NCBI GenBank assembly: GCA_044426045.1
Contig: JAWXUX010000011.1
Location: forward strand, 760 to 64,759
Length of the DNA stretch: 64,000 nucleotides
Reading direction: 5' to 3'
Source of the DNA: Bacillota bacterium
GTDB taxonomy: Bacteria > Bacillota > Clostridia > Christensenellales > CAMQZB01
The stretch's first letter is position 1; every line of letters starts with the position of its first letter. Both the position numbers and the translations under genes were made by a program. Shown piece after piece: positions 11,537-58,730 of the stretch. The notes beneath the pieces are model-generated. The model made no database searches and was not told the DNA's origin. It saw only the letters and a list, made by a program, of their open reading frames with translations.

Positions 11537-11549
11537 AAGGAAAAAAAAA

Positions 11550-11794
11550 GTGAAAGGTGAAAGGTAAAAGGTGAAAGGTGAAAGGTGAAAGGTGAAAGGT
11601 GAAAGGTGTGGTAGGCACTCGGCTTCGCCTCGTGCACCCCATTATATTTAGGTAGCAAAAAAGGAACGCTCCTATTTGAATAGTTACGTCCCTATTATGG
11701 ATTACAAATATAATTGAAAAGCACGAAGCGAAGCTGAGTGCATTACCACACCTTTCACCTTTCACCTTTCACCTTTCACCTGACGCGTAGCGTC
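11550..11794. repeat. Composite palindromic intergenic element, copy A (type 1 core)
   Basis: 8x GTGAAAG (one GTAAAAG), GTGTGGTAGG, hairpin GCACTCGGCTTCGCCTCGTGC, AT-rich core with AGGAACGCTCCT hairpin, hairpin GCACGAAGCGAAGCTGAGTGC, ATTACCACAC, 4x CTTTCAC, mini-hairpin GACGCgtaGCGTC. Lies between convergent PBP and GntR genes. An isolated heptamer at 11533-11540 contains the PBP stop. Confidence 0.9.
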
Positions 11795-15021: not shown

Positions 15022-15073
15022 GAGGGAGAGTTAAAAAAATCGGGAGATTTTTTTAAAGGGGAAAGAGAGGAAG

Positions 15074-15353
15074 GTGAAAGGTGAAAGGTGAAAGGTGAAA
15101 GGTGAAAGGTGAAAGGTGAAAGGTGAAAGGTGTGGTAATGCACTCGCCTTGCTCGTGCTTTCTATATTTCAATTTTGGCGGGCGTTGGGGACGGTACGCA
15201 CACATGGGTGCGACCCTACGCATGGAAATAGCTACAAACACGTTAAAACGCTTGTAGCTATTGTAGTTTTGTATTTAATTTAGGATGCACGGAGCGTTAG
15301 CGTAGTGCCTACCACACCTTTCACCTTTCACCTTTCACCTTTCACCTTTCACC
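15074..15353. repeat. Composite palindromic intergenic element, copy B (type 2 core, long variant)
   Basis: 8x GTGAAAG, GTGTGGTAATGCACTCG... hairpin, core with stem ATAGCTACAA/TTGTAGCTAT and a 49-nt GC-rich insert (15177-15225), ...GTAGTGCCTACCACAC, 5x CTTTCAC. The inner part is inverted relative to type 1. Confidence 0.9.
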
Positions 15354-35475: not shown

Positions 35476-35619
35476 GCGTGTTTTTCGTCCGCTTATGCTT
35501 TTTTTATAAAAATAAGTTTGTGGCACGCTGTTTTATTTAGGTGAAAAGTGAAAGGCGTATTTTTTTATCCGCTTATGCTTTTTTATAAAAATAAGTTTGT
35601 GGCACGCTGTTTTATTTAG
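35476..35619. repeat. Tandem duplication (2 x ~79 bp) of a 65-nt hairpin module separated by GTGAAA(A/G) heptamers
   Basis: GCGT(G/A)TTTTT..TCCGCTTATGCTTTTTT(T)ATAAAAATAAGTTTGTGGCACGCTGTTTTATTTAG occurs at 35476-35540 and 35555-19. Outer stem GCGTG/CACGC, inner stem CTTAT/ATAAG, T-runs on both strands (terminator-like). A shorter relative lies at 55681-55735. Confidence 0.8.
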
Positions 35620-35891
35620 GTGAAAGGTGAAAGGTGAAAGGTGAAAGGTGTGGTAGGCACTCGCTTTGCTCGTGCACCCTATTATATTTGGACAGTAAAA
35701 AAGGAACGTTCCTATTAAATAGTTACGTTCCTACAAGTGGTTACAAATATAATTGAAAAGCACGAGCGGTACGCGAGTGCATTACCACACCTTTCACCTT
35801 TCACCTTTCACCTTTCACCTTAAGCGTAGCGTTTCACCTTTCACCTTTCACCTTTCACCTTTCACCTTAAGCGAAGCGTTTCACCTTTCAC
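35620..35891. repeat. Composite palindromic intergenic element, copy C (type 1 core)
   Basis: 4x GTGAAAG, GTGTGGTAGG hairpin, core with perfect palindrome AGGAACGTTCCT, hairpin GCACGAGCGGTACGCGAGTGC, ATTACCACAC, 4x CTTTCAC, then two further blocks each made of a TTAAGCG(T/A)AGCGTT mini-hairpin plus heptamers. Abuts the PHP gene stop. Confidence 0.9.
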
Positions 35892-36604
35892 TTTAAAAAA
35901 GCTTCTCTCTCCAAAACCCCAAAAATCCCCTCTACGCTTTTTTCACATTCTAGCCAACACTCTGCTTCCGCCATGCTTTCTAGGTAGTGGGCATCGGAGT
36001 TATCTAGGACTCGGTAGTTTTCAAGTCCTGCGTTTTTAAGGTCTTCCATAGTGGCGTTTTTGCCTTTTTCTATTATTTTGAAGCCCATATCGCTGTCCAT
36101 TCCGCCTAGGATTGGGATTATTCCACTGCCCTCTTTCAAAACGTGGGCGGGGAAACAAATTCCGCCAAGGCTATCCACGATTTTTGCGATTTCGTATATG
36201 CCAATATCAACGCCATAAAGGGTGAAGTTTGGGTTTTCGCCCGTCACTTCATCATTTTCGTTCATATAAATTTGCTTTCCGAAAATTCTTTCATCGTTTG
36301 GCATAATCGTCATTCTTGAAAGCACAATTTTTTCAAGCTGCACGGCGGAATCTGCCGTTTTGAAAAGGCACACCACGTGGATATCTTCACTTGTTGTGAC
36401 TTCCATTCCTGCAATCACGATAAGACCCACGCTTTCACCCACTTTTTGGCACGCGCAAACATTGCCCGCGGTGTTGTGATCGCAAATTGCAATCGCATCA
36501 TACCCAAGCATTTTTGCAAAATTCACCACGTTGTTTGGGGTGTTTTCCTCCCCGCCACACGGTGAAAGGCATGTGTGGATGTGAAAGTCATAGTAGCATT
36601 TCAT
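35888..36604 (-). CDS. PHP (polymerase/histidinol phosphatase) domain protein
   Basis: 238 aa. YDFHIHTCLSPCG and AICDHN metal-binding motifs. The stop TGA is contributed by a GTGAAAG heptamer of the adjacent repeat element. Confidence 0.8.
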   Translation of the reverse strand: MKCYYDFHIHTCLSPCGGEENTPNNVVNFAKMLGYDAIAICDHNTAGNVCACQKVGESVGLIVIAGMEVTTSEDIHVVCLFKTADSAVQLEKIVLSRMTIMPNDERIFGKQIYMNENDEVTGENPNFTLYGVDIGIYEIAKIVDSLGGICFPAHVLKEGSGIIPILGGMDSDMGFKIIEKGKNATMEDLKNAGLENYRVLDNSDAHYLESMAEAECWLECEKSVEGIFGVLEREAFLK

Positions 36605-39202: not shown

Positions 39203-41032
39203 CTAAATTTCACCTTTACTTTCAAAAAAAGCAATCTCCTCAAGAAAAATTTCGCCGTATCTTTCGAATTTCACTTCGCCAACGCCGTTAACTTCAAGCA
39301 TTTCTTCTTTGGTTTTTGGGCGTTTATCCGCCATATCGATAAGGGTTTTATCGGAAAACACGACGTATGATGGGACGTGTTTTTTCTTTGCAAGATTGCC
39401 ACGAAGGATTTTGAGGGTGTCAAATAGCGTTGCATCTTCTGGGGTGATTTCAACTGATGCTTTGAATTTTTGCGATTTCGACATTTTTTCTTCGGCGTTG
39501 AACTTGAGCTCGAACTCCTCGCCGTTTCGCATGAAATTCTTGCCTTCTTCGGTGAGTTTCAATGTTGGATATTCGCTGTCGGTTTGGGTGATATAGCCAT
39601 TTTCAACAAGGCTGTCGATAACGGATTTCAAATATCGCACGCTTTTGTCGCTCGCGTTATAATATGAATTTTCGTTGAGTCGCCATGTGAGAATTTGTTT
39701 TGATTTGCTTCCCGAAAGCACGCTTGCGATAACTCCGCTTCCGAACCTTTCGCGAAGGGATGAAATGCACGAGATGATTTGCCTTGCTTCGGCTGTTGCG
39801 TTCGAGCTTTCGTATTTAGTGTTGCAACCACTGCAATTTCCGCATTTTTCGGTGGGTTTTTCACCGAAATATTCAAGAATATAATTTCTTATGCAACCAT
39901 TGTGCTTGGCATAGTCAGTCACTATTTGAAGGCGTTTTTTGTCTTTTTTTATCAGTTCAAGCTTCGCTTTTGGATCTAGGTCTTGAACATCTTTTGAGTT
40001 TTCAATCAGCCAGATGTTGTTTCTGACGTCGCTTGCGGAAAAAAACATTGTGCATATTGCAGGAGCACCGTCACGCCCCGCCCGCCCTGCTTCTTGATAG
40101 TAGCTTTCGAGGTCTTTTGGCATGTTGTAGTGCAAAACAAACCCGACGTCGGATTTATCAATGCCCATACCAAAGGCGTTTGTTGCCACCATGATTTTCA
40201 CGCGATCGTATAAAAAATCGTTTTGGTTTTTGGTTCTTTCGCTTTCCGATAGCCCCGCGTGGTATCTTGATGCGTTGTAGCCATTTTGATTCAAAGTTTC
40301 GCAAACTTCTTCCACGAGTTTTCGAGAAAAGCAATACACAATGCCAACTTTGTTTTTGTTTTTTGCCATAAAAGATAGAAGTCCCTCTTTTTTGCGATTT
40401 GGCTTTGTCACTTCAAAATAAAGGTTTTCACGATTGAATCCCGTGATTGTGATTTGTGGTTTTTGAAGTTTCAAAAGTTTCACGATATCATCTTGAACTT
40501 TTTTTGTCGCCGTTGCGGTGAACGCTGAAATTGGTGGGCGATTTTCTAGCTTTTCAATAAATTTTGGGATATCGAGATAGCTTGGGCGGAAATCTTGACC
40601 CCATTGCGAGATGCAGTGGGCTTCATCAACTGTCAACATTGAAATTTTAGTGTTTGTCGCAAAATGAAGAAAACTTTGGGAAAGAAGGCGTTCGGGTGCG
40701 ACATAAACAAGTTTATATTTGCCGTTTTTTGCATAGTCAAGCGCCATTTCCACTTGCCTTGGAGTTAGGCTTGAATTTATGTAGGCTGCGGGGATGCCGA
40801 GTTCTTTTAGCACCATAACTTGGTCTTGCATCAGCGAAATCAGCGGTGAAACCACGATTGCAACGCCATCAAAATGTATTGCGGGAACTTGAAAACACAG
40901 CGATTTTCCACCGCCCGTTGGCATGATTCCAACAACGTCGCCACCGTTTATTATTTCCTCCACAATTTGCTGTTGACCACGGCGAAATTCGTCATATCCA
41001 AAATGCGTTTTTAAAATTTCTTTTGCGTTCAT
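39203..41032 (-). CDS. recQ: ATP-dependent DNA helicase RecQ
   Basis: 609 aa. Motifs PTGGGKSLCFQ, DEAHCISQWGQDFRP, Zn-binding Cys cluster, C-terminal HRDC. Confidence 0.95.
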   Translation of the reverse strand: MNAKEILKTHFGYDEFRRGQQQIVEEIINGGDVVGIMPTGGGKSLCFQVPAIHFDGVAIVVSPLISLMQDQVMVLKELGIPAAYINSSLTPRQVEMALDYAKNGKYKLVYVAPERLLSQSFLHFATNTKISMLTVDEAHCISQWGQDFRPSYLDIPKFIEKLENRPPISAFTATATKKVQDDIVKLLKLQKPQITITGFNRENLYFEVTKPNRKKEGLLSFMAKNKNKVGIVYCFSRKLVEEVCETLNQNGYNASRYHAGLSESERTKNQNDFLYDRVKIMVATNAFGMGIDKSDVGFVLHYNMPKDLESYYQEAGRAGRDGAPAICTMFFSASDVRNNIWLIENSKDVQDLDPKAKLELIKKDKKRLQIVTDYAKHNGCIRNYILEYFGEKPTEKCGNCSGCNTKYESSNATAEARQIISCISSLRERFGSGVIASVLSGSKSKQILTWRLNENSYYNASDKSVRYLKSVIDSLVENGYITQTDSEYPTLKLTEEGKNFMRNGEEFELKFNAEEKMSKSQKFKASVEITPEDATLFDTLKILRGNLAKKKHVPSYVVFSDKTLIDMADKRPKTKEEMLEVNGVGEVKFERYGEIFLEEIAFFESKGEI

Positions 41033-41055: not shown

Positions 41056-41329
41056 GGTGAAAGGTAAAATCTGAAAAATTAAAGTAAAAAGCTTTGCTTT
41101 AAGTGAAAAGTGAAAAGTGAAAAGTGAAAAGTGAGGTAGGCACTCGTTTCGCTCGTGCACCCTATTATATTTGGGCACTGAAATAGGGACGCCCCTATTT
41201 GAATAGTTGCGTTCCTTCTGCTAGTTGCAAATATAATTGAAAAGCACGAGCGGTACGCGAGTGCATTACCTCACTTTTCACTTTTCACTTTTCACTTTTC
41301 ACTTAACGCGTAGCGTTTCACCTCTCACC
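41056..41329. repeat. Composite palindromic intergenic element, copy D (type 1 core, GTGAAAA arm variant)
   Basis: Decayed heptamers, AAAGCtttGCTTT mini-hairpin, 4x GTGAAAA, GTGAGGTAGG..., core, ...CATTACCTCAC, 4x TTTTCAC, TTAACGCGTAGCGTT. Both the arm changes and the T>A change are mirrored on the other side. Ends 24 nt upstream of the recQ ATG. Confidence 0.9.
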
Positions 41330-45160: not shown

Positions 45161-45358
45161 GTGAATAGTGAATAGTGAATAGTGAATAGTTGTGGTAATG
45201 CACTCGCTTCGCTCGTGCTTTCTATGTTTGGAAATTAGAATAGTTGCAAACACTTGAAATTGTTTGCAACTATTGTAGTTTTATATTCAATTTTGTATGC
45301 ACGGAGCGAAAGCGTAGTGCCTACCACAACTATTCACTATTCCCTATTCTCTATTCAC
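45161..45358. repeat. Composite palindromic intergenic element, copy E (type 2 core, GTGAATA arm variant)
   Basis: 4x GTGAATA, GTTGTGGTAATGCAC..., core stem ATAGTTGCAAACA/TGTTTGCAACTAT, ...GTGCCTACCACAAC, TATTCAC/TATTCCC/TATTCTC/TATTCAC. Confidence 0.9.
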
Positions 45359-53675: not shown

Positions 53676-53846
53676 ATCATCTCCTTTATTATACCAAGTG
53701 CACATGTGTAAAAGCTATACACTAACCGCTCTATTAATGTCGAAGTTTCACTGTTTTTAGCAAAAAAACGGGTGTGAGAGTTTCGGTGCGGTTTTGAGTT
53801 TTGTTTATTATATGCGAGAGGGGGTGGGGAATATGTTTTTTTTAAG

Positions 53847-54048
53847 GTGAAAGGTGAAAGGTGAAAGGTGAAAGGTTTGGTAGGCACTCGCTTCGCTCGT
53901 GCATTCAATTTATATTTGGGCAGTAAAAAAGGAACGTTCCTATTTGAATAGTTACGTCCCTACTATTGGTTACAAATATAATTGAAAAGCACGAAGCGAA
54001 GCTGAGTGCATTACCACACCTTTCACCTTTCACCTTTCACCTTTCACC
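53847..54048. repeat. Composite palindromic intergenic element, copy F (type 1 core)
   Basis: 4x GTGAAAG, GTTTGGTAGG hairpin, core, hairpin, ATTACCACAC, 4x CTTTCAC. The most compact type 1 copy. Confidence 0.9.
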
Positions 54049-55691: not shown

Positions 55692-55906
55692 GGATAGCAT
55701 TCGCACGCTGTTTTTTGTTGTTTTTTAGGGGGATGTTCTAGGATTATTTCACTTGAAACTTCAACATTTTCAACGCCGAAATAAAAATGAATTTCCTTTT
55801 CTTCCCTGTCGCAAATTGATGTGTAGAATTTCATGGGGGGGGTGATTTTTTTTGGTTTTGAGTTTGGGCATAGTTAGGCGGTTGGTTTGGGGGGATATTT
55901 TTTTAA

Positions 55907-56172
55907 GTGAAAGGTGAAAGGTGAAAGGTGAAAGGTGTGGTAGGCACTACGCTTCGCTCCGTGCACCCCATTATATTTGGCTAGTTTAATAGGAACGTTC
56001 CTATTGAATAGTTGCGTTCCTACAAGTGGTTGCAAATATAATTGAAAAGCACAAGGCAAAGCCGAGTGCATTACCACAACTTTTCACTTTTCACTTTTCA
56101 CTTTTCACTTTAAGCGTAGCGTTTCACTTTAAGCGTAGCGTTTCACTTTAAGCGTAGCGTTTCACCTTTTAC
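55907..56172. repeat. Composite palindromic intergenic element, copy G (type 1 core, mixed arms)
   Basis: Left arm 4x GTGAAAG but right arm 4x TTTTCAC (GTGAAAA type). Followed by 3 tandem 19-bp units TTTAAGCGTAGCGTTTCAC (56109-56165). Confidence 0.9.
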
Positions 56173-56175
56173 CTT

Positions 56176-58516: not shown

Positions 58517-58730
58517 GTGAAAAGTGAAAGGTGAAAGGTGAAAGGTGTGGTAATGCACTCGCTTTGCTCGTGCTTTCAATGTTTAAAAATATAAATAGTT
58601 GCAAACAACTTTTGTCGTTTGCAACTTATTTTAGTTTTGTATTCAATTTTGGGTGCACGGAGCGTTAGCGTAGTGCCTACCACACCTTTCACCTTTCACC
58701 TTTCACCTTTCACCTTAGCGAAGCGTTTTA
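58517..58730. repeat. Composite palindromic intergenic element, copy H (type 2 core)
   Basis: GTGAAAA + 3x GTGAAAG, GTGTGGTAATGCAC..., core stem AGTTGCAAAC/GTTTGCAACT, ...GTGCCTACCACAC, 4x CTTTCAC, TTAGCGAAGCGTT. Confidence 0.9.

Follow-up and report, generated by a model that had tools for sequence, protein, structure and literature searches.

The window, that is, the whole stretch of 64,000 nucleotides that was analysed, is part of a genome of 2.05 Mb, designated G000; the genome of a sister species of the same genus is designated G001. One copy of a composite palindromic repeat is located at positions 35619-35894 of the window on the plus strand. Its parts, together with a duplication that overlaps its left border, are the following:

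35500..35634, + strand: tandem duplication of 79 bp that takes in the left flank and extends into the left arm as far as its first heptamers (direct repeat D4, 98% identity)
35619..35646, + strand: left arm, 4 x GGTGAAA, pairing with the right arm
35647..35656, + strand: left junction GGTGTGGTAG, with the GTAG 'head' at 35653-35656
35657..35675, + strand: left sub-terminal hairpin, GCAC-TC-GC-TTT-GC-TC-GTGC, pyrimidine form on this strand, with covariation
35676..35759, + strand: core of 84 nt with stems of its own
35760..35780, + strand: right sub-terminal hairpin, GCAC-GA-GCG-GTA-CGC-GA-GTGC, purine form on this strand with tandem G.A and a GTA loop
35781..35790, + strand: right junction ATTACCACAC, the reverse complement of GTGTGGTAAT, with a GTAA-type head
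35791..35894, + strand: right arm, heptamers interrupted twice by 12-nt modules
35791-35818, + strand: first array of the right arm, 4 x CTTTCAC
35820-35831, + strand: right-arm module TTAAGCGTAGCG
35832-35866, + strand: second array of the right arm
35867-35878, + strand: right-arm module TTAAGCGAAGCG
35879-35894, + strand: residual heptamers of the right arm

The two arms form inverted repeat I1 (41 nt, 98% complementary), and the right end as a whole is the reverse complement of GTGTGGTAAT followed by GCAC-TC-GCG-TAC-CGC-TC-GTGC. Within the core, ATTATATTTG (35681-35690) pairs with CAAATATAAT (35744-35753), and a central palindrome, AGGAACGTTCCT, is found at 35702-35713. The general layout is therefore (GGTGAAA)n, GTGTGGTA, hairpin, a core of about 85 nt, inverted hairpin, TACCACAC and (CTTTCAC)n; on the purine strand the hairpin sequence is GCACGAGCGGTACGCGAGTGC. 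The first-pass annotation had described the inner ends as a GTAG or GTAA tetranucleotide followed by a GCAC/GTGC foot, arranged as an inverted pair of hairpins, and this is what is read at 35657-35675 and 35760-35780. The 12-nt modules, TTAAGCG(T/A)AGCG, contain GCGTAGC or GCGAAGC mini-hairpins and are interleaved with right-arm heptamers, here (35820-35831 and 35867-35878) and in another copy (56110-56165).

Eight full copies of the repeat are present in the window, each with one end of the GGTAGG type and one of the GGTAAT type. The other copies are:

11549..11781, + strand: sister copy, end modules at 11610-11635 and 11721-11747
15073..15353, - strand: sister copy, oppositely oriented; its end modules are 15134-15158 and 15287-15313
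41056..41329, + strand: sister copy, both arms made of AGTGAAA; its end modules are 41135-41158 and 41244-41270
45161..45358, - strand: sister copy, both arms made of GTGAATA; its end modules are 45194-45218 and 45299-45325
53846..54048, + strand: sister copy, end modules at 53879-53902 and 53989-54015
55906..56173, + strand: sister copy with a 3x3 internal loop at its left end, end modules at 55939-55964 and 56049-56075
58523..58714, - strand: sister copy, oppositely oriented; its end modules are 58549-58573 and 58655-58681

Searches with the strict hairpin pattern GCACTC-N5-14-TCGTGC yielded 11 hits in the window, where 0.03 are expected, and 238 in the 2.05-Mb genome, with 1+1 for the reversed control. 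With a looser definition, 411 end modules comprising 159 sequence variants were obtained, which were combined to 168 paired elements and 75 solo ends. In total, the family has about 200 elements and about 400 ends in G000. A GTAG head with its hairpin at one end and a GTAA(T) head with its hairpin at the other are present in all eight copies of the window and in at least 112 of the 168 paired elements of the genome; exactly 112 show the strict G/AT asymmetry of the ends, and most of the others are close variants. Core lengths are mostly between 75 and 87 nt.

The sister species G001 carries 154 strict hairpins, while in 39 other genomes of the order they were found only at background level (0-5). 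The repeat is confined to one genus among the genomes searched. A search of 185,579 species genomes with the exact 20-mer of the arm-junction region, records of the own genus being masked, produced three stray single matches only. A contig of 9.7 kb (JABUSW010000033.1, from a metagenome-assembled genome labelled Blautia sp. MAG23) terminates in an exact 20-mer of the arm junction; it may be a mis-binned piece of this genus. The window as a whole gave no match to Rfam at the gathering threshold.

Only nine of the 168 elements lie inside crude open reading frames, and every element is a pair of hairpins in inverted orientation. Copies are found mainly after genes: gaps between convergent genes, which make up 11.5% of all gaps, hold 27% of the copies, and divergent gaps are depleted (7%). 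Orientation relative to transcription is weakly biased, 59:34.

Other short repeats were detected alongside the family. The first, more classically REP-like, consists of GTAGGGG, a variable stem of 5-6 bp, the loop CCATGT, the matching stem and CCC. At least 65 copies with compensating stem variants are present in G000, 13 of them nested in cores of the heptamer-armed elements and many at contig ends, and a variant occurs in G001 (locus L033). The core of the copy at 15073..15353 holds a nested copy of this GTAG-headed repeat at about 15193 on the minus strand. Another short repeat, CCCCCTACGGGGGAGCTGTCGCGAAGCGACTGAGGGGGAC, is nested in long cores and also found elsewhere (contigs of G000, C17:339-910, C22:50.3-51.9 kb and C29:23.1-24.8 kb). 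The only reverse-transcriptase domain in G000 (C12:1697-2344) is an RVT_1 domain in an open reading frame of 1023 aa.

Energy minimisation of the complete element gives a rod, whether it is folded as RNA or as DNA: the left hairpin region pairs with the right one, TC at one end being complementary to GA at the opposite end. As RNA, the fold reaches -127 kcal/mol (z = -21). Covariation was counted without any pairing filter. Watson-Crick pairs, of two or three types, occupy the inner-stem positions in 180/180, 176/180 and 112/112 ends, whereas the maximum in shuffled data is 85-147. The two loop-flanking positions beside the foot are Watson-Crick in only 0-2 of 180 and 0 of 112 ends. The observation that the variable inner stem always pairs, made at first from a few copies, was borne out genome-wide: within the hairpin, 852 of 854 cells are Watson-Crick. 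Across the two ends of an element the inner stems pair poorly, and no more than 5 of the 168 carry an identical tip at both ends. A rod or four-way junction formed by pairing between the hairpins was rejected, since variants are not compensated across the element (x1=x2 in only 16 of 132 variant elements). It is also contradicted by the feet in G001: 53 of 54 GCAT feet finish in ATGC, a compensated change from GCAC/GTGC, and in the two G001 loci that were read (L031 and L036) the partner end of the GCAT/ATGC foot retains GCAC/GTGC. Covariation within the hairpin, the uncompensated variants across the element and the G001 feet together led us to accept local hairpins as the conserved structure. 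These results show that each hairpin folds locally, with a conserved foot of 4 bp, an internal loop that is not Watson-Crick and a fast-changing tip that always pairs.

The internal loop had been described as a constant 2x2 mismatch. The unpaired loop itself persists, but its sequence varies among the 411 ends: TC/TC was found in 200, GC/TT in 65, TC/TT in 41, TT/TC in 39 and TAC/TCC in 26, and in one G001 subtype the loop is reduced to a single bulged T. The 'fixed' mismatch is a family of pyrimidine-rich internal loops. Likewise, the GTAG head is not conserved throughout the genus, both ends being GTAA in G001, while GTGGTA in the junction is conserved and is the most conserved motif of the family.

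A few tip types recur among the ends, and the tips change quickly. In near-identical elements, whose cores differ by at most 6%, tips differ three times more than cores (0.10 versus 0.036 differences per nt, p = 4e-5). Such a pattern is compatible with passenger hairpins that have no role of their own and are produced by template-switch 'correction' in quasi-palindromes and by recombination among about 400 similar ends. The small set of recurring tips is expected from module shuffling, and most relatives of the cassette in other lineages, described below, lack such hairpins. Template switching should, however, perfect the internal loop, which is never Watson-Crick in about 300 ends and is kept as a loop or bulge in both species. 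Also conserved across both species are the foot, the GTGGTA junction and the asymmetry of G versus AT ends. Hairpins without a role of their own are considered improbable.

Arms are renewed as well. The heptamer AAAGGTG is present in 79% of the G000 ends (323/410), and the minor types AAAAGTG, AATAGGT, AAAAATT and AATAGTG make up further arms; a minor-type arm matches its partner in 24 of 37 pairs, with 1.7 expected. The number of units varies from 2 to 9, so the distance from the hairpin to the end of the element varies accordingly. In G001 the dominant unit is AAAATTA. Hybrid arms in that species have the new unit adjoining the junction and AAAGGTG further out (e.g. locus L033, 390-425), an order which suggests that the heptamer arrays are renewed from the inner side. 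At orthologous sites, the elements of the two species differ in arms, hairpins and cores.

The two strands of a hairpin are not equivalent. On the strand running 5' to 3' towards the nearer arm, the internal loop is GA/GA, and on this outward strand the terminal loops are of the G..A type (GAA, GTA, GATA, GTTA) in 297 of 411 ends; the complementary strand shows T.C and C.T oppositions. Unusual stability is a property of tandem sheared G.A pairs and of GNA loops (d(GCGAAGC) is an example), particularly in DNA; tandem G.A is stable in RNA too. Each end is accordingly predicted from its sequence to be a strong hairpin on one strand and a weak one on the other. This strand asymmetry and the rarity of G.T wobble pairs (2 of 854 inner-stem cells) suggest that the hairpins form a structure at the DNA level.

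The main rival to this reading is a role in RNA. The elements would be transcribed in 3' UTRs and between genes, RNase III would cut the long heptamer stem in the manner of 23S intervening sequences, and the hairpins would stabilise or mark RNA ends or aid termination. The enrichment between convergent genes and depletion between divergent ones, the strongly negative folding energy and the stability of tandem G.A in RNA would all fit, and heptamer stems of intervening sequences (IVS) are cut by RNase III in Coxiella (PMC4990558). On the other hand, strictly Watson-Crick stems with two G.U in 854 cells are unusual for helices selected as RNA, the bias towards one transcription orientation is weak, and a transcript of either strand would contain a strong hairpin and a weak one. 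Rfam gives no match, and the spread of the copies would be left unaccounted for. A role in RNA is therefore regarded as unlikely, although it deserves more weight than any other rival.

In form, the repeat resembles the REP, BIME and REPIN sequences mobilised by RAYT (TnpA_REP) proteins, for example in E. coli and Pseudomonas, a resemblance that the first-pass annotation had noted. Common to both are an imperfect palindrome with a GTAG-type tetranucleotide on the 5' side of its foot, a mismatch in the stem, inverted doublets and hundreds of intergenic copies biased to the 3' ends of genes. The repeat differs by its tandem heptamer arms of variable length, its structured core of 85 nt, the gene present in some copies and its host, a genus of Bacillota. 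No paper in the literature library that was searched combines RAYT, REPIN and Firmicutes. The annotation had further pointed to RAYT (Y1) transposases, which recognise classical REPs, and to IS200/IS605 TnpA as candidate enzymes, and the genomes were searched for such genes.

Only two Y1_Tnp matches were obtained in G000. The first is a canonical IS200 TnpA of 155 aa (152 bits on NF033573). The end hairpins of this IS200, of the CCACCAGCTAAGCTGGTGG type, are unrelated to GCAC..GTGC, and the insertion sequence has no counterpart in G001, where no PF01797 (Y1_Tnp) match was found. IS200/IS605 ends and their miniature derivatives do resemble the repeat in having sub-terminal imperfect hairpins and two slightly different ends, but in the repeat the hairpins are mutually inverted and not both readable on one strand. 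Origin as a miniature element derived from IS200/IS605 was rejected, because the ends of the resident IS200 are unrelated and IS200 is absent from G001. The IS200 copy adjoins a solo right end of the repeat (L001 2040-2300; G000 C2, about 117.7-118.0 kb), at which about 150 bp of degenerate CCCAAAT- and CTAAACC-like short repeats replace the core.

The second match is a single-copy RAYT-like gene, which is also present in the sister species:

G000 C2:71801-72583: RAYT-like gene, single-copy, 261 aa, with a weak Y1 domain and a C-terminal helix-turn-helix
G001 C7:49268-50053: RAYT-like gene of the sister species, 69% identity with the G000 protein

The Pfam score of the protein is 24.8 bits, and on NF047646, for which the cut-off is 80, it reaches 35 bits; a direct search of the PDB gave no useful match. 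A profile of the protein and its homologues was aligned to E. coli TnpA_REP (4ER8). Where TnpA_REP has its catalytic Y115, the G000 protein has Ser and the G001 protein Phe; where it has H59 of the HUH motif, Glu is present throughout the bacterial family of the RAYT-like protein. The roles of both residues in TnpA_REP have been described (PMC3479197). The open reading frame remains intact in both species despite loss of the catalytic Tyr and one HUH His. The protein looks like a domesticated DNA-binding protein. It resembles subclass 2.1 of the RAYTs, which bears a helix-turn-helix and for which no REP-like sequences were found beside the gene (PMC6006769). Homologues with 32-37% identity that keep the Tyr are encoded in three genomes of sister genera (G003-G005), all without hairpins; the genes there have ordinary flanks, in which no flanking repeats were detected. 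A more distant RAYT-like copy in G027 has terminal inverted repeats, the TIRYT arrangement. As read from the aligned sequences, neither G000 nor G001 contains a catalytically intact RAYT.

These results bear on the possibility of a true REP/REPIN system, in which the doublets would be moved by the single RAYT-like protein, or in trans by the IS200 TnpA, after recognition of the GTAG/GTAA-headed hairpins in single-stranded DNA. The GTAG/GTAA head, the imperfect palindrome and the inverted pair correspond to the REP/REPIN design (PMC3479197), and an element lies 60 bp downstream of the RAYT-like gene in both species. It is present on the downstream side only, and with elements in 25% of convergent gaps its position there is no more than chance would give; the three other sites compared are likewise occupied in both species. 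Against a REPIN stand the substituted catalytic residues, the lack of a PF01797 match in G001, the RAYT-like genes in G003-G005 without hairpins or flanking repeats, the resemblance to a subclass reported without REPs, and the unrelated ends of the IS200. In addition, in IS608-type elements cleavage sites are located at set positions relative to the hairpin, and the variable distance from hairpin to end (2-9 heptamers) is a poor fit with cleavage at a fixed position. With the catalytic residues lost and the IS200 ends unrelated, the defining enzyme of REP systems is missing, and a true REPIN appears very improbable. Thus, the comparison with REP and REPIN is good for form, namely head and imperfect palindrome, inverted pair, high copy number, intergenic location and bias to gene 3' ends. 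Membership fails on the enzyme, no Y1 or RAYT gene flanked by the hairpins and with intact catalytic residues being found in the genome search, and on co-occurrence with a cognate RAYT, as the homologues of the sister genera come without hairpins.

Integron attC sites are similar in their conserved stem base, unpaired central part and variable terminal stem-loop, in the conservation of structure over sequence, and in their association with small gene cassettes. The unit described here differs in having two inverted hairpins and heptamer arms, and it has no GTTRRRY core. An integron origin was rejected: no integron integrase is encoded, and the best scores on TIGR02249, 69.5 and 82.2 bits against a cut-off of 265, are at the level of ordinary tyrosine recombinases.

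Cargo was found in two copies, one at G000 C2:170098-170650 and one on contig C33, in which the short core is replaced by a gene for a four-helix-bundle protein of 116 aa:

G000 C2:170229-170576: PF05635 gene, 95 bits on PF05635

PF05635 is the 23S rRNA intervening-sequence protein family. Both gene-bearing copies have the same hairpins and arms as the gene-less ones. They are 99.6% identical over 554 bp. The match breaks off precisely at the outer border of each arm, and there is no relationship between the flanking sequences, which shows that the whole unit including its arms moved recently. Their left arms differ by one heptamer, which shows that arm length changes quickly. The gene is absent from the copy at 35619-35894 and from about 99% of all copies, and none was found in the 94%-complete assembly of G001 despite hundreds of copies, so the protein is not needed for persistence. 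Attempts to find longer 'autonomous' copies by pairing distant ends gave mostly false pairs, the only cargo being the PF05635 gene and nested small repeats.

Further indications of mobility were sought. Fourteen pairs of cores are at least 97% identical. For one copy present only in G001, the corresponding G000 site retains just two right-arm heptamers (window 39208-39222). Three G000 sites were checked and all are occupied in G001 too; many insertions are therefore old, and current activity may be low. No consistent target-site duplication was detected, the flanks being T-rich on the left and A-rich on the right. A search for an empty site through contigs encoding the flanking gene gave a single contig of 1 kb, which breaks at the repeat.

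The closest published object is the 23S intervening sequence of Coxiella and Leptospira (PMC4990558). It has a 28-bp stem, tandem heptamers variable in number and a PF05635-family gene; RNase III cuts it, and its mobility is a suspicion of long standing. The long terminal stem of inverted tandem heptamers with variable copy number and the PF05635 four-helix-bundle gene in the loop, the latter in two copies, are the same here. Different from it, the copies lie between genes and not in rRNA, about 99% are gene-less, and REP-like sub-terminal hairpins are added which most relatives lack. Of 41 metagenomic PF05635 relatives with enough flanking sequence, 21 have inverted arms with a period of 7; in most there is too little space for a sub-terminal hairpin, and a few show a small one between arm and gene (L110, L114). 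Elsewhere in the order, PF05635 genes are located between inverted heptamer arms or in arrays of heptamers and small variable hairpins. In G006 (L020/L024), such a gene with GTTAGAG-type heptamer arms resides inside 23S rRNA genes, a classic intervening sequence. In other genera the genes are flanked by arrays of a variable mini-hairpin and a constant heptamer (L016, L017, L019 and L027).

From these analyses, the repeat family is most likely the gene-less form of a cassette that carries the PF05635 gene in two copies and is built like the ORF-bearing 23S rRNA intervening sequences. The hairpins would act as extruded or single-stranded DNA structures, their stable form with tandem G.A and a G..A loop arising only on the strand that runs 5' to 3' outwards. 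They would then be structure-specific cis sites at which a host or element factor mobilises or maintains the cassette. On this account, the hairpins are sites of a lineage-specific, IVS-like mobile cassette with heptamer arms, whose mobilising enzyme was not found in our searches; we consider the chances that it is correct to be about even. A wider version is also conceivable, in which hairpins and heptamer arrays are cis sites of an undescribed, structure-dependent mobilisation that uses neither Y1 nor integron integrase and is common to the widespread heptamer-armed PF05635 cassettes in general. This generalisation is rather unlikely, ranking slightly below the RNA role.

Four results are new here: the test of the catalytic residues in the RAYT relative, the counts of covariation, the asymmetry of the strands and the comparison of ends across species. 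The usual explanation for hairpin repeats of the REP type is a domesticated Y1 transposase. Hundreds of REP-like doublets without a catalytic RAYT mean that either another enzyme recognises the hairpins or they serve a different purpose. The repeat physically ties REP-like hairpins to the heptamer-armed PF05635 cassettes, whose origin and mobility have been unexplained since the early 1990s. If the wider version is true, the genus would be the best natural laboratory for these cassettes, with about 200 copies per genome and two gene-bearing copies that moved recently; species-specific arms (GGTGAAA versus AATTAAA) and tips turning over faster than cores would add to its value. The strand asymmetry provides a direct handle for binding and cleavage experiments.
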